Shown here: piece after piece, positions 54,041 through 64,000 of the stretch
How positions within the stretch are numbered: the first letter of the stretch is position 1
How the letters are laid out: each line of letters starts with the position of its first letter
Source of the DNA: a virus
Taxonomy: Duplodnaviria > Heunggongvirae > Uroviricota > Caudoviricetes
DNA length: 64,000 nt
Reading direction: 5' to 3' (one strand)
Virus record (IMG/VR): IMGVR_UViG_3300021963_000042
Span: 1-64,000 of that record
The notes under the pieces: generated by a model
The model's input: only the letters and a program-made list of their open reading frames with translations
Databases searched by the model: none
Told to the model about the DNA's origin: nothing
Position numbers and translations under genes: made by a program

Positions 54041-56812
54041 TTAATATGTTCCACCATCGATGTTGAAACCATCAATAGTAGAAGTTGCAGCACCAGCACC
54101 AGTAATATTAGTACCAACATACATTGCTTTAGCAACGGATAGACCACCTGAAAGAACAACACCAGCAGTACCAAGCGCAGTGGCGTCAGTAGTACCAGTG
54201 AAAGTAACTGCACCAGAAGCAGACAGAGTTGTAGCAGCTACAGAACCTGCGAAGCTAGAAGCAGTAATTGTCTTATTACTTAACGATTCAGCGCCAGCCA
54301 GAGTAGCCAAAGTACCAGTAGTTGGTAGTGTGACGTTAGTTGCAGCAGTAGAAGTAAGAGTAGTACTGAACGCACCAGCAGTTGCAAGAGTACCGCCAGA
54401 AACAATAGTCAACGTACCAGTTGTACTAGTGATTGTTAATCCGTTAACAGTCTTGTTAGTTAATGCTTCAGTTCCAGCTAAAGTAGCAAGAGTACCAGTA
54501 ACAGGTAGTGTTAATGTAGTATTAGCAGTAGCAGTTAAAGTTGTAGAGAACGCACCTGAAGTAGTAAGGTTACCACCAAGAGTGATAGTCTTACCGCTGT
54601 TGTTAACGCCAGTACCACCATATTGACCAGCAACAATAGTGCCTTGCCAAGTACCACTAGAAATAGTACCAAGAGTGGTGATAGAAGTTTGACCAACATA
54701 AGTGGCAGCAATATCAATTGCATCTGCAGAGATAGAAATGCGGTTTGCGGTACCAACTGCGTTTAGCGTATTACCAGTCTTAGTTAAACCATCGCCAGCG
54801 ATAATCTGACCAGCACCAGAGAACTGAACCCAGTTGATGTTGCTAGTACCAATAGTGATAGTACCAGTTGAAGTACAAACAAATCCGTTATTAGCGTTTT
54901 GTGTACCTTCTTCAACGAAAGTGAAAGCACCTGGAGTAACTTCAGGTTGTTGGTCAGCGTCAACAGAGCGAGTCAATACCCAGTTTGTAGAGGCAGTACC
55001 AACTGTAGTAACAGTATAGATACCGTTCTGAAGAGCGGATGCTTGGTCTTTAACAAGAACACGATCGCCAAGGACAGCAACAATAGAGTCAACTGTAAAG
55101 GCAGCTTGAGTACCAGCGTTAGTAAGAGTAGCACCAACACCAGAAGATCCGTTAGCATAAGTTGCAGTTAATGCAGTAGTTGTTGCGATGCGAACTGAAT
55201 CTTTAGGGTCTAGACCAGTCTTAACAGCATCAACGTAGTTCTTAGTAGCAGCATCAGTTGCTTGAGTAGGTTCAGCAACAGAAGTGATACGCTTGTTAGC
55301 GACGTCAACAGTACCAGTACCAGTTGGCACCAAGTTAACGCTGTTGTTGCCAGCAGCGCCTGCAAGAGTCAAGCTACCAGAAGTAGCAGTGATACTAGTT
55401 GCAAGAGCAGCGCCAAGAGTTGGTGTTACCAATGTTGGGCTAGTTGCAAACACTAGAGAACCAGTGCCAGTCTCATCAGAGATAACCCCTGCCAATTCAG
55501 CAGAAGTAGTTGAAGCGAATACGTTTAGTTTGTTTGCTACATAAGCAACAGTACCGCCACCACCAAACGCTACAGTAGAAGTATCAGTACCAGTAAATGT
55601 TAATGTATTGCTTGCAGTAAGAGTTTTACCGTCAGCGATAGTTAATGTAGAACCAGTCGCAGGAGCAGTAATCGCTACTTTGTTAATAGATGTAGCAGAA
55701 GCAACACCCAATGTAGGTGTCACTAAAGTTGGGCTAGTATTGAATACTAATAGACCAGAACCTGTCTCATCTGTCATTGAAGCCAGAAGTTGAGCAGAAG
55801 TAGCAACTAATGTGTTATTTGCTAAGTTGATGGTCTTGTTTGTAAGAGTATCAGTTGTAGCACGACCAACCAACTGGTCAGTTGCAGCTGGTAGAGTTAA
55901 AGTATTTGAACCCGCAACTGCTGCAGCAGCAACAGTAATTGTACCAGAAGTAGAACCATTAAATGTAGCGCCAGCAGATCCAATAGTTGGAGTGTTTAAT
56001 AGTGCGCTAGTTAATGTCTTGTTGGTAAGGGTTTGTGTGCCAGTTAATGTAACAACAGTAGAATCAATATTAAATGTTACATTATTCAGTGCTGAGTTGA
56101 TTACAGAATCAATACCAGTACCACCAACGAATGTCAGAGTATCTGTCGCAAGAGCGATAGTATCTGCTCCAGTATCAGCAGCAATACTTAAAGATGTTGT
56201 AATACCAACAGTACCAGCAGCAGTTAATTGACCTTGCGCATTAACAGTGAATGTTGGGATCGCTGTTGCAGAACCATATGTTCCAGCAGTAACACCAGTG
56301 TTAGTGATAGACAGAGTAGTTGTATTACCAGCATCGCTTACCGTAGAAGTGATACCTGTACCATTAACAATAGTACCGCCAACTAAGTCATAGATGTACT
56401 CAGCTAGTGTATCTGTTGTACCATTGATGTATGGGTTATTAAGGACTAACTTGCCAGTGCCGTTTGGAGTGATGTTAATATCACCATTGGCATTGGTAGA
56501 AGATAGTGTGCTTGATGTTAACTGTAAGTTACCAACTAGCCACTTGTCAATACTTCCTGTTGCGGAAAGAACTGGGATTGAAGATGCGCTCGTTGTTAAA
56601 GTTCCTGCAACGGATGCATCAATTAAGCCAGTATAGTAAGTACCACCAATAACCAAGTGGTTAGCAGCGTTACCCGAAGTTTCTACGCCCATACCAATGT
56701 ATAAGCGATTGCCCCCAGCGCCATTTAAGGCTGAGTATGCTAATTCGCCTGCAGCTAGGGTAGTTGGATTACCAGCTGTAGACGAGCGTTTAATTCTAAT
56801 AATAGAAGCCAT
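54041..56812 (-). CDS. tail fibre protein
   Basis: 923 aa. IRIKRSSTAGNPTTLAAGELAY N-terminal motif. Thr/Gly/Ala/Ser-rich beta-repeats with recurring TLTNKT. Confidence 0.55.
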   Translation of the reverse strand: MASIIRIKRSSTAGNPTTLAAGELAYSALNGAGGNRLYIGMGVETSGNAANHLVIGGTYYTGLIDASVAGTLTTSASSIPVLSATGSIDKWLVGNLQLTSSTLSSTNANGDINITPNGTGKLVLNNPYINGTTDTLAEYIYDLVGGTIVNGTGITSTVSDAGNTTTLSITNTGVTAGTYGSATAIPTFTVNAQGQLTAAGTVGITTSLSIAADTGADTIALATDTLTFVGGTGIDSVINSALNNVTFNIDSTVVTLTGTQTLTNKTLTSALLNTPTIGSAGATFNGSTSGTITVAAAAVAGSNTLTLPAATDQLVGRATTDTLTNKTINLANNTLVATSAQLLASMTDETGSGLLVFNTSPTLVTPTLGVASATSINKVAITAPATGSTLTIADGKTLTASNTLTFTGTDTSTVAFGGGGTVAYVANKLNVFASTTSAELAGVISDETGTGSLVFATSPTLVTPTLGAALATSITATSGSLTLAGAAGNNSVNLVPTGTGTVDVANKRITSVAEPTQATDAATKNYVDAVKTGLDPKDSVRIATTTALTATYANGSSGVGATLTNAGTQAAFTVDSIVAVLGDRVLVKDQASALQNGIYTVTTVGTASTNWVLTRSVDADQQPEVTPGAFTFVEEGTQNANNGFVCTSTGTITIGTSNINWVQFSGAGQIIAGDGLTKTGNTLNAVGTANRISISADAIDIAATYVGQTSITTLGTISSGTWQGTIVAGQYGGTGVNNSGKTITLGGNLTTSGAFSTTLTATANTTLTLPVTGTLATLAGTEALTNKTVNGLTITSTTGTLTIVSGGTLATAGAFSTTLTSTAATNVTLPTTGTLATLAGAESLSNKTITASSFAGSVAATTLSASGAVTFTGTTDATALGTAGVVLSGGLSVAKAMYVGTNITGAGAATSTIDGFNIDGGTY

Positions 56813-56824
56813 CTATGTTCTCCG

Positions 56825-57070
56825 TTAAAATTCGCCACCTTCCATGTCCTGTGCATCTAGCACAGTGGAAGCTGTCCATCTATTTGTTGTTGTTTTGTAA
56901 ATTAAAATTGACCCATCGATTTTATTAGTTGTATCAACATCAGCAATTGCTGACATAGATTCTACTACTGCTGGGTTGGACACGTTTGATGAAGAAAGTG
57001 TAAGAACACCTTCAGAGACTGCCACCTGAAGAGCTTCATCTGCTTGTACAATAGCGATTGTATCTGCCAT
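56825..57070 (-). CDS. hypothetical fibre-module protein
   Basis: 81-aa ORF. Confidence 0.3.
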   Translation of the reverse strand: MADTIAIVQADEALQVAVSEGVLTLSSSNVSNPAVVESMSAIADVDTTNKIDGSILIYKTTTNRWTASTVLDAQDMEGGEF

Positions 57071-57072
57071 AG

Positions 57073-57408
57073 TTATGATTGCGTTATTTGAGGTATTACT
57101 GTAACCACACCTTCTACAACTCGAGTTTTGGATCCAGATGGGGATGTAATTTCCACATCATACAACCATCTTCCTGCTGGAATTGCTTCGGACTGTTGTG
57201 GGGATAACTGTAAACGAATTTTGCCTGTATCTGCATTAAATACACTGGCAGTAAAATTATATGCTGTGCTTGAACTGTACGATTTTCTCATTTGAGACGC
57301 AACCGTATACCCAGTCAAATTTAATGGTTGGCCATTAGCTGCACTGACTGTAATTATATTGCTATAATTTGCACCAGCGTCAACAAAAAGGTTACTGATA
57401 GTCGCCAT
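57073..57408 (-). CDS. hypothetical (possible Ig-like) protein
   Basis: 111-aa ORF. Confidence 0.3.
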   Translation of the reverse strand: MATISNLFVDAGANYSNIITVSAANGQPLNLTGYTVASQMRKSYSSSTAYNFTASVFNADTGKIRLQLSPQQSEAIPAGRWLYDVEITSPSGSKTRVVEGVVTVIPQITQS

Positions 57409-57504: not shown

Positions 57505-58155
57505 ATGGAAGATCAAAATCAAACCAACTTACCTTCGCCATTAGTCGGCGATGCACCAACAGAAGACTATAACTTCGAATATTCACCAGTCGAAGAAACT
57601 TTTCAAAGACGTCTTTTCCCAACAATTTTCGCAAGCTATAAATTTGCAGATTGGGAAAAAATTGCCCAACCTCTGATCAATCTATCGAATGGATGGAATG
57701 TTCCAGATGAAGATCATGGCAAAGATATTATGGAATTAGATCATCCTGCAGTCAATAGACTGAAAGAAATCGTCTATGAGATCTGCGAAGGTCTTGAGTT
57801 ATCAAAAGACGACAATGGTAGAACACCAGTTATTGTAGGTTCAAATACATTGTTCCAACAAAAGGGCGAACACATTCCACCACATAACTACGAGTTCTCT
57901 ACTTTAGTATTCTCGTTCGTGGCGAATGTTGGGGAAAATGGTCCAATGACATACTTCCCAGATCCACGTGGTGGCGTACAAGCCTTGCGTAAAATTGTTT
58001 CTCAAAATCTAGTTAGCACAAGTTTCGGCATTAAGAGTCGCATTGGAGAAATCTATGTAACTCCAGGTTATGCTCAGCGTTACATCGAAACTAACTTAGA
58101 ATCAGAAACCCACGTAATCGTAAACGTCCGTGTTAACTTTGTTATGATTAGTTAA
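57505..58155 (+). CDS. divergent 2OG-Fe(II) oxygenase-like protein (TIGR02466-like)
   Basis: The only plus-strand gene, with a GGAG SD. RLFPTIFAS resembles the paralogue N-terminus. HIPPHNYEFSTLVFSFV and VNVRVNF fall at equivalent motif positions. Confidence 0.4.
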   Translation: MEDQNQTNLPSPLVGDAPTEDYNFEYSPVEETFQRRLFPTIFASYKFADWEKIAQPLINLSNGWNVPDEDHGKDIMELDHPAVNRLKEIVYEICEGLELSKDDNGRTPVIVGSNTLFQQKGEHIPPHNYEFSTLVFSFVANVGENGPMTYFPDPRGGVQALRKIVSQNLVSTSFGIKSRIGEIYVTPGYAQRYIETNLESETHVIVNVRVNFVMIS

Positions 58156-59205
58156 TATTTTCTTATTAACATAGAAGACTGAATAGTCTTCCAACAAAAA
58201 CAGCCAAGGTGCAATGGGATTTCCTAACGAGGAAATCCCTTTTGGCTTGTTCCACGCATAATAGCTATCCCCACTATATTCCTCAATTAGTTCTCGCATA
58301 ACCCATCTGTGGGTTAGTGGTTTACCCACATCTTTAGTGAATGGCTCTTTAGTCGTTAAAACATATTTCTGAAAGTCGTCAGTATTAAAGAAATGGTACT
58401 GATTGTTTTGTTGTTTGGTTGCAATTCTGGTAGAATACTCAGCTGTATACCAATCGAAATTAAAGATTAACCACCAACGCAAATCCCTAAGTGTCTCGAT
58501 TTTCTTTGGGCTGGCTTTAATAGAAGGCAGCAGGAATTCGTGCAACTCATCGTTTATGCATTTGGTGTAATCAATTAATGGGTCGTCATTATTAAATTGG
58601 TGATGGAAAAACGAAACCTCAGTTTTAACCTTTCCAGTAGTAAAATCGTCTACTGGACCAAATAACTGGTTTCCAAAAAACCCTGTTACAAAAATACTAT
58701 TAGAGTCACCATCATCAAAATCTCTAGTAGAAGAAACTTTAAATTTATACTTCACGCCTGAGTTTTTAATGCAATTATCAAATAGAGAACCCGATTCTAA
58801 AATAGAACTATATGTTCCATAAACTGTAATTTGACTGGGGTCGTCTACTTGTTGCATTAGAGAGAATAACGCCAGAGTGCTGTCAATACCACCACTCCAC
58901 ACTACAGTTATGGGTTTATCTAATTCTACCAATTCTTTCGTTCTTTCCTCAACACACTGTCTGAACGACTTATTAAAAGTAGAATCTATCAGTGGTATTT
59001 GCAAAAGACCAGGCTTAATATTCAAATAGTGTGGAGTCTGTCCAGTTCTATCGTAAACTGAATTCAAATTGAGTTTATGCTTATCGAAGAATGCATAAAG
59101 TTCTTTATGATTTGGAGCAAGATATTCATCTATATTTTCTTGCCTTTTGTTGATCAAGTCCAATGATTTAATCAAATTGATATTGTAGTATAATAACTGT
59201 TTCAT
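58102..59205 (-). CDS. PP-loop ATP pyrophosphatase (AsnB/ExsB-like)
   Basis: 367 aa. VVWSGGIDSTLALFSL (SGGxDS) at about residue 100. The 3' end overlaps the convergent plus-strand gene. Confidence 0.55.
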   Translation of the reverse strand: MKQLLYYNINLIKSLDLINKRQENIDEYLAPNHKELYAFFDKHKLNLNSVYDRTGQTPHYLNIKPGLLQIPLIDSTFNKSFRQCVEERTKELVELDKPITVVWSGGIDSTLALFSLMQQVDDPSQITVYGTYSSILESGSLFDNCIKNSGVKYKFKVSSTRDFDDGDSNSIFVTGFFGNQLFGPVDDFTTGKVKTEVSFFHHQFNNDDPLIDYTKCINDELHEFLLPSIKASPKKIETLRDLRWWLIFNFDWYTAEYSTRIATKQQNNQYHFFNTDDFQKYVLTTKEPFTKDVGKPLTHRWVMRELIEEYSGDSYYAWNKPKGISSLGNPIAPWLFLLEDYSVFYVNKKILTNHNKVNTDVYDYVGF

Positions 59206-59213
59206 AATTTCCT

Positions 59214-59242
59214 CAAAAACAAAAAAGGGAGCCTGAGCTCCC
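59214..59242 (-). terminator. intrinsic terminator (bidirectional hairpin)
   Basis: AAAAAA-GGGAGC-CTGA-GCTCCC-TTTTATTT. Near-copy of the gp23 terminator hairpin. Confidence 0.5.
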
Positions 59243-59266
59243 TTTTATTTAGACACTAAAATTTAA

Positions 59267-60214
59267 TTAGTGTAACTGAATCTTCTGAACCAAACCTGGA
59301 GTGAAGTAGTCAGCAAACTTCTCATATACTTTAGAAGTAACAGCTTTGAACTTGCTTTCTTCTTCAGCAGACATCTTAACAACTTCAACACCCTTTGCTT
59401 CACACTCAGCCAAAATCTCTGGAATGTTAGCAACAGATTCACGACGCTCTTTGCGAGCAGCGTTGAAAGCAGCAGTAGCCATGATCTCTTGAGTTTCAGC
59501 GTCAAACTGTTTCATGAAGTCTTGGTTAACGATGATAGAAGTCAAGAACAAGCTATGAGCAGTGTCGTTAACAACTTTGAAAGATTCGTTCTGGTTTAGT
59601 GGGAAAATACGTACGTATGTAGATTCACCAGCAGAGATAACACCAGCGTCAGCTGCTTCGTTCATTTCTTCAAGAGCGATGTCCTTGTTTGGAACTGCGC
59701 CAAGAAGTTTGAAAGTCTCAACAGCAACTGGGCTGCGAGAAGTGCGAACAGATTGACCTTCCCAAGCTGCAACAGTGTCAGCACGGAAGTTTGCTGGAAC
59801 TACACGGTAGCCACCAGAGTAAGTGAAAGACATAGCCTTGATATTGCTATTCTTAGAAACGCCAGCTAGCAACTCAGTACCAATCTCGCCTTCTAGAACA
59901 CGATCAGCATGGGCGTGATCTTGGAACAAGAAAGGAAGGTCTAGAGCGTGTAGGTCTTGATTATAGTCAGCCAACCAAGTAGTATAGATGTGGCTCATTT
60001 CGATAGCACCAGAATCAACCAACTGCATTAGTTCATTCTTAGTGATTTTCTTACCATCATTATACTTTGCAGAGTAGTCAGACAAAGAAAGAACTTCGAT
60101 GTCGAACATACCACCAGTTTGCTCATTTACTTCTTTAGAGAAGGACTCGGCTACTTTCAAAAATAGACCGATAGGCTCGTGGGCAATAACCCATTTAACA
60201 TGCTTCTTTTGCAT
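59267..60214 (-). CDS. DctP-type (TRAP) solute-binding protein homologue, no signal peptide
   Basis: 315 aa. KWVIAHEP, LDLPFLFQDHAHADRVLEGEIGTELL, YSGGYRV (conserved Arg) and GQSVRTSRSPVAVETFKLLGAVP align to DctP/SiaP. Confidence 0.7.
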   Translation of the reverse strand: MQKKHVKWVIAHEPIGLFLKVAESFSKEVNEQTGGMFDIEVLSLSDYSAKYNDGKKITKNELMQLVDSGAIEMSHIYTTWLADYNQDLHALDLPFLFQDHAHADRVLEGEIGTELLAGVSKNSNIKAMSFTYSGGYRVVPANFRADTVAAWEGQSVRTSRSPVAVETFKLLGAVPNKDIALEEMNEAADAGVISAGESTYVRIFPLNQNESFKVVNDTAHSLFLTSIIVNQDFMKQFDAETQEIMATAAFNAARKERRESVANIPEILAECEAKGVEVVKMSAEEESKFKAVTSKVYEKFADYFTPGLVQKIQLH

Positions 60215-60227
60215 TTATATCTCCTTG

Positions 60228-60554
60228 TTATTTTCTTAAATACTTAAGATGTTCAGCGCATCTAAGATCTAGTTTCCATTTTTCACCTTCAGCCGTAACC
60301 TCTAATACAATAATTGGTAGGTTCAGTCTGATGATTCTTTCCTTATATTTATAAACGAATTCTTTCTCTTCTTGCGATGCCTCGATTATAAAGTCGGGAA
60401 TCTGTATACTGAAGTTGTTATTCTGGAATTTGTTTTCTAAAGAATTGTGATAGAAAATATCAGCTAGTGTTCTTCGATTATAATTTGATACTGCAGTTCC
60501 ATATCTTGGATACCTATTGATATTCCATATGTTGCAGTCTAAAAATCCACTCAT
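60228..60554 (-). CDS. hypothetical protein
   Basis: 108-aa ORF within the cassette. Confidence 0.3.
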   Translation of the reverse strand: MSGFLDCNIWNINRYPRYGTAVSNYNRRTLADIFYHNSLENKFQNNNFSIQIPDFIIEASQEEKEFVYKYKERIIRLNLPIIVLEVTAEGEKWKLDLRCAEHLKYLRK

Positions 60555-60555
60555 T

Positions 60556-62019
60556 TTATTTAGGTTCTACTGGAACTTGGACTACTGGAATATTCAAAGG
60601 TTTGCGGACTTTCCAACTCTTTTTTCCAGTCTTCATATATTCGTTGTCGATTACCTGAATGCTAGTAACACCATCGAAACGAATTCGATCACCTTTAATC
60701 TCTGTCAAAACCAGACCATCAGTCATCTTGAATAGAGCAGCGCTCAACATCGCTAGGTTATACCAGAATAGGTTTTCGCAAGCCTGCTCCCAGTATTGAT
60801 CTTCTAAGAACAAACAAGCACCCTGACATAACTGTACAACTGGACAAGAAGGGCATTCTTTACGAGTAGACCAATGATAAGAGTTCGTTAGACGAATGTT
60901 ATCAAAATCTTCGATGTTTCCAATATTATGCTTGGTTAAGGAAGAAGTATTCTGACACGTAGTAACATTACCCTTCATATCGATGGCAATATTGTCTTCC
61001 TTATCCATACCACACTTTTGACCAACAGCTTCAGCTGGACGACCATAGACGATAGACTCAAAGAATGACTTGACCTTCTGATAGATAGTCCAACTAAATT
61101 GGTTCTTATTATCGATGGTTTCTTCAAATAAAGTATGAAGGATTTCTTTCTTCTCGTCTGTGGTTTGGAGAGAGTGAGTCATACCAGAGTCATCATATGG
61201 CAACATTAATTCTTCTGTAGTAACTTGAATTTCACGCTGGTCGACTCCAGGATTTTCAAATCCGACGTGTTTCTTATTGAGTTTATCCATAATAAAATTA
61301 CGGACAGAAGGAATAGAAACATTCTCACGTGTAAGAACACAGTTGAAAGTGAAACGTGTCAACCCCATAGTTTTCATAGCATAAACAACAGCGTCTTTTG
61401 CTACAGGTTCATCTAATGGATCTGGTCCACGATTCTGCGCATGCAGTGGTCCATCATGAGACATACCGATAGAAAACCCCATACGATTAAACCAATCAAC
61501 TTTTTCTCTAGTTAAAAGAGAACCATTGGTAACCATCATGAAACTAGCATTAGGGTAAACCTTCTTGATCTTTTCAGCAAGAGGTTTCAGTGTTTTCCAG
61601 TAAACCATCGGCTCACCACCCCAAAACTCAAGACGGAATTTATCATATGTTCCAAAGTTGAAATTCTCTTTCATCTTTTGGATCAATTCTTCCGCATCTT
61701 CTGGACCACCTACTGGGTCGTGTGGTTGGTGCGCTTGGTTACAGTAAGAGCATGCGTAGTTACACTTAAGACCCATCGTGATCTTAAGCGTAGTTGGCTT
61801 ACGGGATTTCTTACCGTGGAGTGCAGGATCGTGTGGGTTTGTAATATTTGCAGGTTCCCACACCTTTGCATTCATTTGATATTGAAGACCCTTACTCACA
61901 TGCTCGAGCGAGGGTCTTTCGTGCGTTTCTTCCCAATACATTTCAGATGTCATTGGGTCGTAAACCATATTAACTTTCACATCATTAGCCCCTTGTAGGA
62001 CTAGCGTAAATTTGCTCAT
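60556..62019 (-). CDS. radical SAM enzyme with C-terminal SPASM domain
   Basis: 487 aa. CNYACSYC (CX3CX2C) and C-terminal CPSCPVVQLCQGAC (CX2CX5CX3C). Confidence 0.7.
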   Translation of the reverse strand: MSKFTLVLQGANDVKVNMVYDPMTSEMYWEETHERPSLEHVSKGLQYQMNAKVWEPANITNPHDPALHGKKSRKPTTLKITMGLKCNYACSYCNQAHQPHDPVGGPEDAEELIQKMKENFNFGTYDKFRLEFWGGEPMVYWKTLKPLAEKIKKVYPNASFMMVTNGSLLTREKVDWFNRMGFSIGMSHDGPLHAQNRGPDPLDEPVAKDAVVYAMKTMGLTRFTFNCVLTRENVSIPSVRNFIMDKLNKKHVGFENPGVDQREIQVTTEELMLPYDDSGMTHSLQTTDEKKEILHTLFEETIDNKNQFSWTIYQKVKSFFESIVYGRPAEAVGQKCGMDKEDNIAIDMKGNVTTCQNTSSLTKHNIGNIEDFDNIRLTNSYHWSTRKECPSCPVVQLCQGACLFLEDQYWEQACENLFWYNLAMLSAALFKMTDGLVLTEIKGDRIRFDGVTSIQVIDNEYMKTGKKSWKVRKPLNIPVVQVPVEPK

Positions 62020-62057: not shown

Positions 62058-63212
62058 TTACGCAATTTCAACCCAAAGTTCTGCCCAAGAAACGAATTTA
62101 CCAATGTTTAACTTAACCTTAAAGTAATCGCCAGTAGTTAAGCCGACAGTAGAAATTAATAGATTCTCACAGCCAGAATGTAATGTTGTCAATCTGTCTG
62201 TAGGATAGTTATGTGTATCTAGAAATTCTTGGGTAGCAGCATTAGGAGCTTCTGGATCGTATATATTAGAAACACGTGTCTTATTTGAAATACAGTTGAT
62301 GCATTCTACATCAAAGGTAGCAGCTGCTCTGGAACCAAGTATTGTATGCAATCTACTTCCGAAAATAACCTTAACATTATATGTATCAGAAGCTGGCAAT
62401 GTTACTTTAAATCTATTGCCAGAAGTAGGAGCAGCAGTTGCAGGTAAACCAAGTGAAGTGTCAATACCTTCAACAACTATTTCTTTTTGCTGTTGTAGTT
62501 CGACATATCCTGTAGATTTTGAAGTAGGTTTTACAAACTGCGTTAGAGCAGAAGTTAAGACTTTACCTTCAGAATCTAAAACTTCAAACGTCGCCAAAGT
62601 TTTCACATAAAAATTACACCAAATTTCATACTCTCTTTGAGTAACTTCAGTAACTTCAGCTGGAGTATTTTCAATAATACTGTCTAATACATTCACTTGC
62701 AAATCTTCAATGAAGAACATCAAAGTAGAACCAGTGAAACCAGAAAGTTCTTTATAGAAAGAATCTAAAACGAACAATGGTGTTTTCGTTGAATTAGACT
62801 GATAGCGATATTTGTTTAGATTGTAAAATAATTTTACATGAGAATCACTACCATTGATGTATTCTGTAGCAATATCATAAACATCGATTGGGTCGCTAAT
62901 AGTTCCTGTCTCTGAGTCGAACTCAACGATCCACTTGTAGTTATCCGTTTTCATTCTGAAGTCATCAGCAGTGAACGCACGTTCAGCTACAATACGAAAA
63001 TCAGCTGTTTCATGAACATCACGTTTTTCGTCAGGTGTATCTTCAGGTTTTGCTTCGTCTAGATCTGGATTTGCAGGAACAACTTCTTCCATTTTAACAT
63101 GGATAGTTTGTGTAGCAGCATCAAAGCGCATTGTGGCTCTGTGTTTGCTATCTCTTTCATAGACTTCTGTACCTTCGTTTGGTCTAATTACAGTTTTGAA
63201 AATTTTTAACAT
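62058..63212 (-). CDS. hypothetical protein
   Basis: 384-aa ORF between the Cys-repeat gene and the rSAM gene. Confidence 0.3.
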   Translation of the reverse strand: MLKIFKTVIRPNEGTEVYERDSKHRATMRFDAATQTIHVKMEEVVPANPDLDEAKPEDTPDEKRDVHETADFRIVAERAFTADDFRMKTDNYKWIVEFDSETGTISDPIDVYDIATEYINGSDSHVKLFYNLNKYRYQSNSTKTPLFVLDSFYKELSGFTGSTLMFFIEDLQVNVLDSIIENTPAEVTEVTQREYEIWCNFYVKTLATFEVLDSEGKVLTSALTQFVKPTSKSTGYVELQQQKEIVVEGIDTSLGLPATAAPTSGNRFKVTLPASDTYNVKVIFGSRLHTILGSRAAATFDVECINCISNKTRVSNIYDPEAPNAATQEFLDTHNYPTDRLTTLHSGCENLLISTVGLTTGDYFKVKLNIGKFVSWAELWVEIA

Positions 63213-63225
63213 TATGGTTCCTCAA

Positions 63226-63600
63226 TTAGCAGTTGCAAGCGCAGTTACAGTTACAGTTGCAAGCACAGTTACAGTTGCAATTAGATCTGTACCACTGGAA
63301 ACCGCCCATCGTATTATCTTGGTTGTCGTGACGGATACCATCAGTAGAAGCGTTAATAGCTCCACCAACAGAAGTGTTACGGAAAATATTGATACGTCTG
63401 TCAGTAGTAACACCGAAACCTAAGTCACCAGCATCACAGTTACCGCAGTTACAGTTAGCTCCGTTACATGCGCAGTTCCATGCGCAGTTAGCGTTTGGCT
63501 CTGTATAGGTTCTGTTGCCTGCGTCATAATAATTCCAAAATAAGTCTACAACGTCTGTGCCATCAGCACGTCTGTGTCCTGTTGCTCCGTGATAAGCCAT
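63226..63600 (-). CDS. Cys/Asn-repeat protein (RiPP-precursor-like or metal-binding fibre accessory)
   Basis: 124 aa, 15 Cys. NANCAWNCACNGANCNCGNCD internally and the C-terminal tail NCNCNCACNCNCNCACNC-stop. Lies 3 nt downstream of a fibre gene. Confidence 0.5.
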   Translation of the reverse strand: MAYHGATGHRRADGTDVVDLFWNYYDAGNRTYTEPNANCAWNCACNGANCNCGNCDAGDLGFGVTTDRRINIFRNTSVGGAINASTDGIRHDNQDNTMGGFQWYRSNCNCNCACNCNCNCACNC

Positions 63601-63602
63601 GT

Positions 63603-64000
63603 TTATTTCTCCAATTTCTCTAAACGAGTAGTTAATTCTTTAATAGTTTGTTGCTGTTCTTTAACTGCTTCGATAAGTAAACCGACAAGGTTTCCGTAAG
63701 CAACAGACTTAAACCCGTCTTGGTTCGTTTCAACAACTTGTGGAACAAAATCTTCGACTTCCTGGGCGATAACACCGATTCTAGGTTTTCCGTCTTGAGT
63801 ATAAGATACACCACGTAAATTACAAACTGTATTGACTGGACTATTTAGTGTTTGAATGTTCTGTTTCAAGCGCATATCAGACGCTTGAGTGAATGTTGTT
63901 GCAACGATAGCGTTAAAAGTATTTGTAGTTCCAGCCCAAGTGTTATTCGCTGCTAAAGAAGGTACGTCTGTACCGCAATCTAAAGTTGGGTTTCCGTCCT
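63603..64000 (-). CDS. tail fibre protein, C-terminal part (continues beyond the window)
   Basis: The frame stays open to the window edge. C-terminal S74-type chaperone LKQNIQTL...IGVIAQEVEDFVPQVV resembles the end of 49167-53414. Confidence 0.6.
   Translation of the reverse strand, partial: DGNPTLDCGTDVPSLAANNTWAGTTNTFNAIVATTFTQASDMRLKQNIQTLNSPVNTVCNLRGVSYTQDGKPRIGVIAQEVEDFVPQVVETNQDGFKSVAYGNLVGLLIEAVKEQQQTIKELTTRLEKLEK

Follow-up and report, generated by a model that had tools for sequence, protein, structure and literature searches.

A cysteine-alternating repeat of phage tail-fibre tips and its association with a radical SAM/SPASM enzyme

We analyzed a 64,000-nucleotide stretch of viral DNA (IMG/VR record IMGVR_UViG_3300021963_000042, positions 1 to 64,000; referred to here as the window), focusing on CN124, a 124-residue protein that ends in a strict cysteine-alternating repeat, and on rSAM487, a 487-residue radical S-adenosylmethionine (SAM) enzyme with a SPASM domain encoded in the same operon. 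The window belongs to a T4-like myovirus, encoding portal, major head, sheath, terminase, DNA polymerase and gp46-like proteins, and the major capsid proteins of Pelagibacter phage HTVC008M, Methylophilales phage Melnitz and cyanophage P-RSM6 share ∼62% identity with its own. Neither a tblastn search with CN124 nor a megablast search with the region gave a match among 50,697 phage records, and no near relative of the window was found among them. On the minus strand, the gene order is a tail-fibre gene with an S74 chaperone domain (S74-fibre), CN124, g384, rSAM487, g108 and DctP, followed by a terminator-like hairpin that is likely the end of this transcription unit (Table 1). The stop codon of the S74-fibre gene lies 2 nt before the ATG of CN124, spacers of 13 nt and 38 nt separate CN124 from g384 and g384 from rSAM487, and g108 overlaps the end of rSAM487. 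In four related loci (L002, L003, L018 and L025; loci are denoted by L numbers throughout) the full S74-fibre gene encodes ∼398 to 401 residues.

The open reading frame (ORF) of CN124 that an initial annotation of the window had called proved to be real, as to coordinates, minus strand, ATG start and length, and it is preceded by a GGAG Shine-Dalgarno sequence 8 nt upstream of the ATG. As that annotation had described, the protein has a strict Cys-X tail, a second cysteine block in its middle and 15 cysteines in total, 6 of them in the middle block and 9 in the tail; the tail itself comprises 18 residues and 9 cysteines rather than the 19 and 10 that had been counted, residue 106 being Ser. 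The partner residues of the tail are Asn and Ala, which makes it an (Asn/Ala-Cys)9 repeat; a C-terminal peptide of the tail type can also be written as ...YRSNCNCNCACNC. Nine cysteines at strictly alternating positions cannot be attained by chance at normal cysteine frequency. Among all stop-to-stop frames of at least 80 residues in the window, CN124 holds the single run of three or more Cys-X units, and the rSAM487 gene holds the single CX3CX2C motif. CN124 had no match in Pfam, NCBIfam or PHROGs, and homology to the T4 adhesin gp38, which the initial annotation had brought up, is thus not borne out.

Table 1. Features of the window around CN124 (positions in the window, position 1 being its first nucleotide)
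Feature	Position	Strand	Evidence or remark
CN124, 124 residues; predicted stand-alone tail-fibre tip protein, proposed substrate	63226..63600	-	ORF with ATG start
C-terminal (X-Cys)9 tail	63229..63282	-	Translation NCNCNCACNCNCNCACNC; stop codon (63226-63228) directly after
Internal cysteine block, 6 Cys	63436..63489	-	Translation NCAWNCACNGANCNCGNC
N-terminal motif ATGHRRADGTD	63553..63585	-	Family consensus ATGF(R/K)xxDGTD; kept across CN124 family
rSAM487, radical SAM/SPASM maturase, proposed modifying enzyme	60556..62019	-	PF04055, TIGR04085
g384, middle protein, immunoglobulin (Ig)-like beta-sandwich	62058..63212	-	AlphaFold2 (AF2) model, hidden Markov model (HMM)
Upstream tail-fibre gene, 3' end with S74 intramolecular chaperone	63603..64000	-	PF13884, E = 1e-9; runs off window
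g108, small protein	60228..60554	-	Synteny in this phage clade only
DctP-type solute-binding protein	59267..60214	-	PF03480, E = 1e-42; last gene before hairpin
Terminator-like hairpin, 10-bp stem and T run	59223..59246	-	
g367, 367 residues, PP-loop (SGGIDS) ATPase-like protein	58102..59205	-	Syntenic in this clade only
g216, 2-oxoglutarate (2OG)-Fe(II) oxygenase-like protein	57505..58155	+	phrog_81, E = 1e-11; opposite strand to module
g923 tail-fibre protein (923 residues) and g111 tail-fibre-assembly-like protein, framing module	54041..57408	-	PHROG matches, synteny

Relatives of CN124 were recovered as nine proteins in a word-indexed search of 5.8 billion proteins and at 25 viral loci in a scan of IMG/VR, with identities to CN124 of 43 to 91%. 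A profile search with the CN124 alignment returned only 4 representatives among 1.84 billion representative proteins. The whole-protein family is therefore limited to this phage clade, and we traced the wider link through the enzyme. Within the family alignment, invariance extends to all six cysteines of the internal block and to six of the nine tail positions; P0004, P0006 and P0007, whose tails are short, lack the last three. Pairwise comparison of the tail cysteine codons among 15 relatives with a 17-residue tail revealed 364 synonymous TGT/TGC differences versus 0 non-synonymous ones, each of these codons being seen both as TGT and as TGC, while the X positions of the tail change only among Asn, Ala and Asp. 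Every tail cysteine is thus under strong purifying selection.

These data bear on the possibility that the repeat is a functionless, slippage-prone simple-sequence tract or a contingency locus. The tail DNA does have a 6-nt periodicity, and the tail varies in length among the relatives, with mostly 9 cysteines and 5, 6, 10 or 11 in some, close relatives included, albeit always in frame. The tract is nevertheless no perfect microsatellite, TGC and TGT being mixed, and the codon comparison, the retention of the repeat down to 43% protein identity and its recurrence on unrelated fibre scaffolds (see below) all speak against slippage, whose probability we regard as negligible; on these three grounds a slippage artefact was rejected. 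The initial annotation had itself raised disruption of the frame in related isolates and freely varying repeat length as signs of such a tract: the frame is intact in all 25 loci and 9 proteins, and variation at the cysteine codons is constrained as described. Differences in repeat length were also seen with P0162, P0166 and P0007/P0169, relatives of CN124 that are in part at least 90% identical (9 cysteines in most, 6 on a 174-kb contig, 5 on a 772-bp contig). Such variants may reflect either real gain and loss of units or collapse of short reads or assemblies.

Of the 25 related loci, about 20 retain the gene order of the module; identity to the window is 69 to 93% for the enzyme and 77 to 97% for DctP. 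rSAM487 matched the radical SAM family PF04055 (E = 1e-10; 42.6 bits versus a gathering cutoff of 29.5) and the SPASM model TIGR04085 (37.4 bits versus a cutoff of 27), and it belongs to phrog_1802 (E = 3e-63). Its cluster motif, C86-x3-C90-x2-C93, is invariant in 12 diverse homologues of 34 to 64% identity, and so are all seven cysteines of the SPASM region, as expected of a domain with two auxiliary clusters (C336-x13-G350-x4-C355, C389-x2-C392-x5-C398-x3-C402 and C414). The best NCBIfam matches were PapB, DynA, CcpM, the anaerobic sulfatase-maturating enzyme (anSME) and QhpD, which apart from anSME are maturases of peptides or proteins that form thioethers with Cys, all below the respective family cutoffs, while the closest solved structures by E value were 8vpo (an unnamed radical SAM protein, E = 5.9e-19), anSME and the SCIFF thioether synthase CteB; 8vpo and CteB align with the radical SAM core of rSAM487 only. 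Judged from these motifs and family matches, rSAM487 is a bona fide radical SAM-SPASM enzyme that forms a separate family among the peptide- and protein-modifying SPASM enzymes. Membership in a curated equivalog family (PapB, anSME, QhpD, CcpM, SCIFF maturase or others) was rejected, as the scores were far below the cutoffs. Relatives of the enzyme were found in 173 stretches of GTDB species-representative genomes and in at least 570 viral stretches of IMG/VR.

To analyze the context of this enzyme family, which has more than 1100 members, we sampled the 160 loci scoring best by the enzyme profile (80 from GTDB genomes and 80 from IMG/VR). Among the 128 loci with at least 2.5 kb of sequence upstream of the enzyme homologue (identity to rSAM487 of 33 to 93%), 122 contained a same-strand ORF with three or more Cys-X units within 4.5 kb upstream, compared with 118 of 11,460 background frames. 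Two further loci carried the repeat gene ∼5.4 kb upstream, behind inserted genes, raising the total to 124. Conversely, the radical SAM gene lay within 6 kb downstream of 65 of the 77 matches to the DNA pattern for NCNCNCxCxC on viral contigs with enough flanking sequence. Eight of the 12 exceptions were short microsatellite frames that are not ORFs, measuring 27 to 43 residues from stop to stop, and a ninth (L265) was similar. The genomic association between repeat and enzyme is thus near-obligate in both directions. The link to radical SAM/SPASM enzymes drawn in the initial annotation is in this way supported at the level of genomes: the enzyme gene lies two genes downstream of CN124 in the same operon, and the pairing recurs in almost all of these distant loci.

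The association extends over phages with unrelated types of virion, including siphoviruses (Achromobacter JWF and 2-1), the Ackermannviridae phage Ralstonia RSP15, marine T4-like phages, P2-like Bradyrhizobium prophages and prophages of Ralstonia, Limnohabitans and Ferrovibrio. Enzyme homologues of 33 to 38% identity adjoin tail-fibre genes in RSP15, JWF and 2-1, and prophage and metagenomic homologues of 42 to 46% identity show the same fibre-repeat pattern, with fibre C termini such as ...NCYSNCNCNCNCACDCNCFTGS in Bradyrhizobium, ...RDTNCNCNCQCSCG in Ralstonia pickettii and ...NCRTNCNCNCDCNCDCNC in an uncultured member of the Caudovirales. Since a SPASM enzyme is tied to the cysteine-alternating C-terminal segment almost without exception, we infer that this segment is its substrate. 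In two loci, L122 and L168 (the latter on the same contig as L010), the CN124 homologue is separated from the radical SAM gene by an insertion of ∼4 kb, whose genes include fatty-acid-desaturase-like ORFs bearing HNNHH motifs; this indicates that the module tolerates insertion of cargo.

The anatomy of the repeat was analyzed in 80 unique tails from other phages and prophages. Each contains 3 to 11 cysteines in strict alternation with residues that are Asn in 59%, Ala in 23%, Asp in 13% and Gln in 1.5% of positions, Thr or Ser being rare, and in 95% of the tails the first three X residues are Asn. The run stops 0 to 8 residues before the stop codon in 64 of the 80 tails, and in 13 a Hint-like autoprocessing domain (PF05203, E = 3e-12) follows directly, with the final residue of the run as its nucleophile; this residue is Cys in 11 of these 13 tails and Ser in the other two, L132 and L134. 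Hint self-cleavage, as predicted from the sequence, would leave the repeat as the mature C terminus, so that with either layout the mature protein would always end in the repeat. The gp36-like fibre of JWF, for example, reads ...KPRQNCNCDCNCNCSC and continues at once into the Hint domain (FPAGTMVL), and the fibre of phage 2-1 has the same design minus one repeat unit. A run directly before a Hint/intein-like domain (CFPAGT...) was observed in these two fibres, L027:4679-6130 (Achromobacter JWF gp028) and L306:2853-4295 (phage 2-1), as well as in L061, L063, L065, L067, L068, L073, L076, L079, L080, L127, L132 and L134.

The proteins that carry the repeat in these phages are 200 to 726 residues long, contain collagen-like repeats and match PHROG tail-fibre families in their N-terminal and shaft parts. 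Some are further characterized by a gp36-like annotation (JWF gp028), Pfam Shufflon_N matches or baseplate-attachment N termini, and their gene neighbours include tube, gpU, gpD and J. By these domains and neighbours we identify the (NC)n-tailed carriers as genuine tail fibres, although no Pfam, NCBIfam or PHROG model covers their cysteine-rich tip. Over its full length, the CN124 HMM aligns collinearly with the C-terminal ∼130 residues of the longer fibres (e.g., residues 222 to 354 of 360 in L128), with the landmarks ATGF(R/K)xxDGTD, the NGNC block, G(G)F..Y(R)(S/T) and the run shared in this order. An ATGF-type motif precedes the cysteine-rich tip domain in the long fibres of L028, L031, L123 and L128, the consensus just before the run is CNCG(A/S)FNC(R/Y)(T/S), and the internal block of CN124 corresponds to the NCNCG.FNC block that directly precedes the tail in long fibres. 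From this collinearity, CN124 appears to be a stand-alone version of the fibre-tip domain. Together with the location of its gene directly after a fibre gene, this upholds the earlier suggestion of a fibre-tip component at the position of the T-even tip adhesin. In the short collagen-like fibre L064:2345-2788 (...QGPTGPQGPAGNCNCACDCGNN) the repeat sits directly on the collagen triple-helix segment, a layout which implies that the tail can be functional where it terminates a trimer.

The fibre context also bears on whether CN124 might be the precursor of a free phage peptide, that is, a ribosomally made peptide with post-translational modifications (RiPP) of the ranthipeptide or sactipeptide type acting as a toxin or signal, with a long leader and a cleaved core. 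A cysteine-rich C-terminal core beside a radical SAM-SPASM gene is the standard RiPP layout, CN124 is small and lies in just such an operon, and two bacterial homologues of the enzyme adjoin ABC/HlyD export genes. Against this, identical tails end fibres of 200 to 726 residues with collagen repeats inside tail-gene modules, CN124 is collinear with the tip domains of those fibres, and the Hint-fused versions would release a fibre rather than a peptide. Moreover, scans with Pfam, NCBIfam and PHROGs revealed no peptidase, transporter or exporter gene in the window operon. We therefore consider a free peptide very improbable, and the comparison with classical RiPP precursor cores made in the initial annotation is not borne out, given the same tails on long fibres and an operon that lacks leader peptidase and exporter in these scans.

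A protein of 240 to 390 residues is nearly always encoded between fibre and enzyme. One family of such middle proteins covers 71 loci, and its HMM matches both RSP15 gp047 (E = 4e-50) and g384 (E = 5e-6). With 25 to 54% identity to its relatives in full-length alignments (80% in the truncated match of L001), g384 is the fastest-evolving member of the module. Its AF2 model (predicted local distance difference test score [pLDDT], 82; predicted template modelling score, 0.81) consists of Ig-like beta-sandwiches; the only significant Foldseek neighbours were seven uncharacterized phage proteins of 252 to 315 residues (E values down to 7.5e-13), and its PDB matches were generic Ig folds. No Pfam, NCBIfam or PHROG match was obtained for g384 or the middle proteins of other phages, and pairwise BLASTP of g384 against the middle proteins of RSP15 and JWF was not significant, its homology being recovered only by HMM and fold comparison. 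The middle protein has no conserved cysteine: JWF gp029 contains none at all, and none is invariant in the alignment. As a conserved third partner in the module, g384 could serve as an adaptor or chaperone in presenting the tip to the enzyme; alternatively, it may be a rapidly evolving adhesin that binds to the tip after maturation. In 15 loci (e.g., L029:7009-8016), the gene immediately upstream of the main enzyme encodes a second, shorter radical SAM-SPASM protein (335 to 362 residues).

The module resembles the known fibre tips of T4 (gp37 needle, gp38 adhesin and S74/Tfa chaperones) in that the CN124 gene directly follows a fibre gene, in that g384, as a neighbour that evolves fast, is reminiscent of an adhesin or chaperone, and in that the distal tip of the gp37 needle likewise carries a residue of metal-ligand type repeated at short period (His with iron in gp37, Cys here). 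It differs from them in showing no sequence or family similarity, in repeating Cys rather than His and in being tied to a radical enzyme; to our knowledge, no described fibre system uses one. The repeat might instead be a metal-thiolate element, either metallothionein-like or a cysteine analogue of the HxH iron needle of gp37, or a disulfide-knotted tip, with the radical SAM enzyme having another task such as modification of the middle protein or insertion of a cluster or metal. Metal-thiolate proteins typically show C-x-C spacing of their cysteines, and the fibre tips of T4 bind metals. In a beta-strand all cysteines of the tail would face one side, giving stacked coordination sites in a trimer, and the Asn and Asp partners could ligate metal too. 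A precedent for cysteine-based covalent chemistry in a phage fibre is that of cyanophage Pam3, whose fibres are held to the baseplate by disulfides (PMC9942802), although those are spontaneous disulfides of single cysteines at the proximal fibre end, formed with neither repeat nor enzyme. However, a metal or disulfide function leaves the near-obligate two-way coupling to the radical SAM-SPASM gene unexplained. The lack of conserved cysteines in the middle protein, the variable number of cysteines in the repeat, the absence of His from the tail and the lack of a Pfam metallothionein match also argue against it, and we assign it a low probability. The specific idea of a gp37-like HxH metal needle, put forward in the initial annotation, can be dropped, as CN124 contains no HxH motif.

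On the whole, we consider it fairly likely that CN124 forms the distal tip of the fibre and that its cysteine repeat is the substrate of the radical SAM/SPASM enzyme, which would most likely introduce thioether cross-links that harden the tip; the pairing is derived from genomic association, and the chemistry by comparison with related enzymes. NxxcB forms a beta-thioether from Cys to Asn in N-x-x-C motifs and tolerates Ala, Gln and Asp as acceptors (PMC9389541), while PapB links Cys to Asp or Glu and can also use the C-terminal residue (PMC12373016). This chemistry, together with the same set of X residues in the phage tails, leads us to favour a ladder of thioether rings. The NxxcA-NxxcB and PapA-PapB systems, the latter with six Cys-Asp thioethers, resemble the phage module in having a radical SAM-SPASM gene beside a substrate with repeated Cys and Asn or Asp residues. 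Furthermore, NCNC consists of overlapping N-x-x-C motifs, and the X set of Asn, Ala, Asp and Gln equals the acceptor set of NxxcB, though the agreement is a purely formal one between motifs. Among the NCBIfam families, PapB matches rSAM487 best, yet at 77 bits versus a cutoff of 340. Unlike the ∼40-residue, leader-bearing peptides of ranthipeptide and NxxC systems, the proposed substrate here is a phage-encoded virion protein of 124 to 726 residues, with strict C-x-C in place of CX3D or NxxC repeats, and scans of the window operon revealed no RiPP recognition element, protease or exporter. The maturation of the quinohemoprotein amine dehydrogenase gamma subunit (QhpD-QhpC) and of sulfatases by anSME is similar in that a SPASM enzyme modifies a protein bound for a larger assembly, and both enzymes are among the best family and structure matches of rSAM487. 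Their substrates and motifs are different, however: CN124 lacks CxPxR, the scores are far below the cutoffs and the context here is a phage tail. By analogy, the logic would be that of sacti- and ranthipeptide RiPPs combined with QhpD- or anSME-type maturation, differing in the virion-fibre substrate, the C-terminal C-x-C, the occasional Hint domain and the encoding by phages.

The mechanism that we propose is modelled on the nearest characterized relatives, namely PapB, NxxcB, QhpD, CteB and the sactisynthases. CN124 would be the distal tip module of the fibre of a marine T4-like myovirus, made as a separate polypeptide here and as a C-terminal fibre domain in other phages, and the co-transcribed enzyme would act on its tail in the infected cell, before virion assembly. 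A 5'-deoxyadenosyl radical would take a hydrogen atom from one of the carbons in residue X (Asn, Asp or Ala), and the thiolate of a cysteine bound to an auxiliary cluster would then form a C-S thioether. Repetition of this step along the overlapping N-x-x-C motifs of NCNCNC would generate a ladder of small thioether rings and with it a rigid C-terminal tip resistant to reduction and proteolysis; the ladder could also lock the fibre chains together. The internal cysteine block is probably a substrate of the enzyme as well. For the more general claim that a dedicated phage radical SAM/SPASM enzyme turns the (Asn/Asp/Ala-Cys)n segment of fibre tips into a covalent cross-link ladder in many phages, among them marine T4-like phages, siphoviruses and P2-like prophages of Alpha- and Betaproteobacteria, we see the chances as evenly balanced.

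The thioether chemistry in particular has to be weighed against the possibility that the enzyme acts on the tail by another reaction, such as conversion of Cys to formylglycine (yielding an aldehyde-rich, reactive tip), epimerization, C-C cross-linking or some other SPASM reaction. anSME is the only solved structure that aligns with rSAM487 over its full length (query residues 78 to 386, chain residues 15 to 331, E ∼ 1e-13), the JWF enzyme is annotated as an anaerobic sulfatase-maturating enzyme, and family-level scores do not separate PapB, DynA, CcpM, anSME and QhpD. On the other hand, the restriction of X to Asn, Ala, Asp and Gln, which equals known sets of thioether acceptors, has no obvious reason under formylglycine formation, and cross-linking in pairs would suit the 1:1 alternation of Cys, as donor, with an acceptor. 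Inspection of CN124 and its relatives also revealed no anSME recognition motif (C/S-x-P/A-x-R), and CN124 was on this ground rejected as an anSME substrate. We regard such a different reaction as unlikely.

Several observations, the full-length alignment with anSME among them, weigh against a thioether-modified tip. The scores of rSAM487 are far under the family cutoffs (PapB, 76.6 versus 340; anSME, 62.4 versus 349), and with scores so far below every curated cutoff the chemistry of the enzyme cannot be read from homology. The pairing of enzyme and substrate is based on gene neighbourhood and motif logic, and four loci (RSP15, L058, L066 and L149) contain the enzyme without a clear repeat, the RSP15 fibre ending only in ...NTNCQCGN. 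No Pfam or NCBIfam match to a PqqD-like or RiPP recognition element was obtained in rSAM487, g384 or g108, although the N-terminal 76 residues of rSAM487 and the Ig-like g384 could serve as recognition elements. The AF2 model of CN124, built from a nine-sequence alignment, has a pLDDT of 34 and is uninformative as to fold, trimer or cysteine geometry. The variation in repeat length from 3 to 11 cysteines implies that a fixed cross-link topology is not required. Radical SAM enzymes are oxygen-sensitive, and the likely hosts are aerobic marine bacteria. Finally, 2OG-Fe(II) oxygenases (PF13759 or PF13640) are encoded between fibre and radical SAM gene in ∼61 other loci (e.g., L086:6091-6777 and L097:2413-2991); their recurrence points to the same tip being modified a second time, in a reaction dependent on O2, but they might also be the real Asn/Asp modifiers.

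Full-text literature searches yielded no paper linking Cys-X fibre tails with radical SAM enzymes, and a description of the module is absent from Pfam, NCBIfam and PHROGs. Two earlier studies touch on its components: a study of pelagimyophages noted, without explaining them, radical SAM cassettes within the host-recognition cluster (PMC7029224), for which the proposed modification, if true, would account, and a marine virome study reported T4-like genomes with many radical SAM genes (PMC5332604). If our reading is correct, it would define an unrecognized class of enzymatic post-translational modification on virion receptor-binding proteins, with phages applying RiPP-type radical chemistry to their own virions. 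It would equally define a new class of SPASM substrates, namely whole structural proteins recognized at their mature C terminus, which is sometimes generated by a Hint domain. The structure and stability of fibre tips, and perhaps the recognition of receptors, would then hinge on an enzyme that neither work on phage assembly nor host-range engineering has taken into account, and a large and diverse enzyme family with a simple, tunable motif and strict C-terminal context would become apparent.

The remaining genes of the neighbourhood are more peripheral. No match for g108 was found in Pfam, NCBIfam or PHROGs. The DctP domain begins at residue 20 of its protein, which leaves no room for a signal peptide, and the protein might belong to the virion or take part in receptor binding instead of being the product of a transport-related auxiliary metabolic gene. 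g367 resembles asparagine synthase (AsnB), QueC and diphthamide synthase only faintly, and it might conceivably amidate or thiolate the Asn/Asp-Cys tail. Pairwise BLASTP of g216 against RSP15 gp046 was not significant; it is a possible accessory modifier. PDB sequence searches returned nothing for g367 or g216.

Two side branches of the enzyme family were also observed. In L058 and L066, which are contigs of Sulfuritalea/Sulfuricella metagenome-assembled genomes, the radical SAM gene (at ∼7001) follows ABC-transporter/HlyD-like ORFs, and no ORF with a Cys-X repeat was found upstream of it; these loci may represent a bacterial, non-phage branch of the enzyme with another substrate. In the Ralstonia jumbo phage RP12 (L305, 47-8125), three radical SAM genes follow the genes for a fibre-like virion protein, a 125-residue protein and a 295-residue protein. 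The RP12 enzymes are 27% identical to rSAM487, and the small 125-residue neighbour is free of cysteine and rich in His and Tyr, so this set may be a parallel radical SAM/fibre-tip system with other chemistry.

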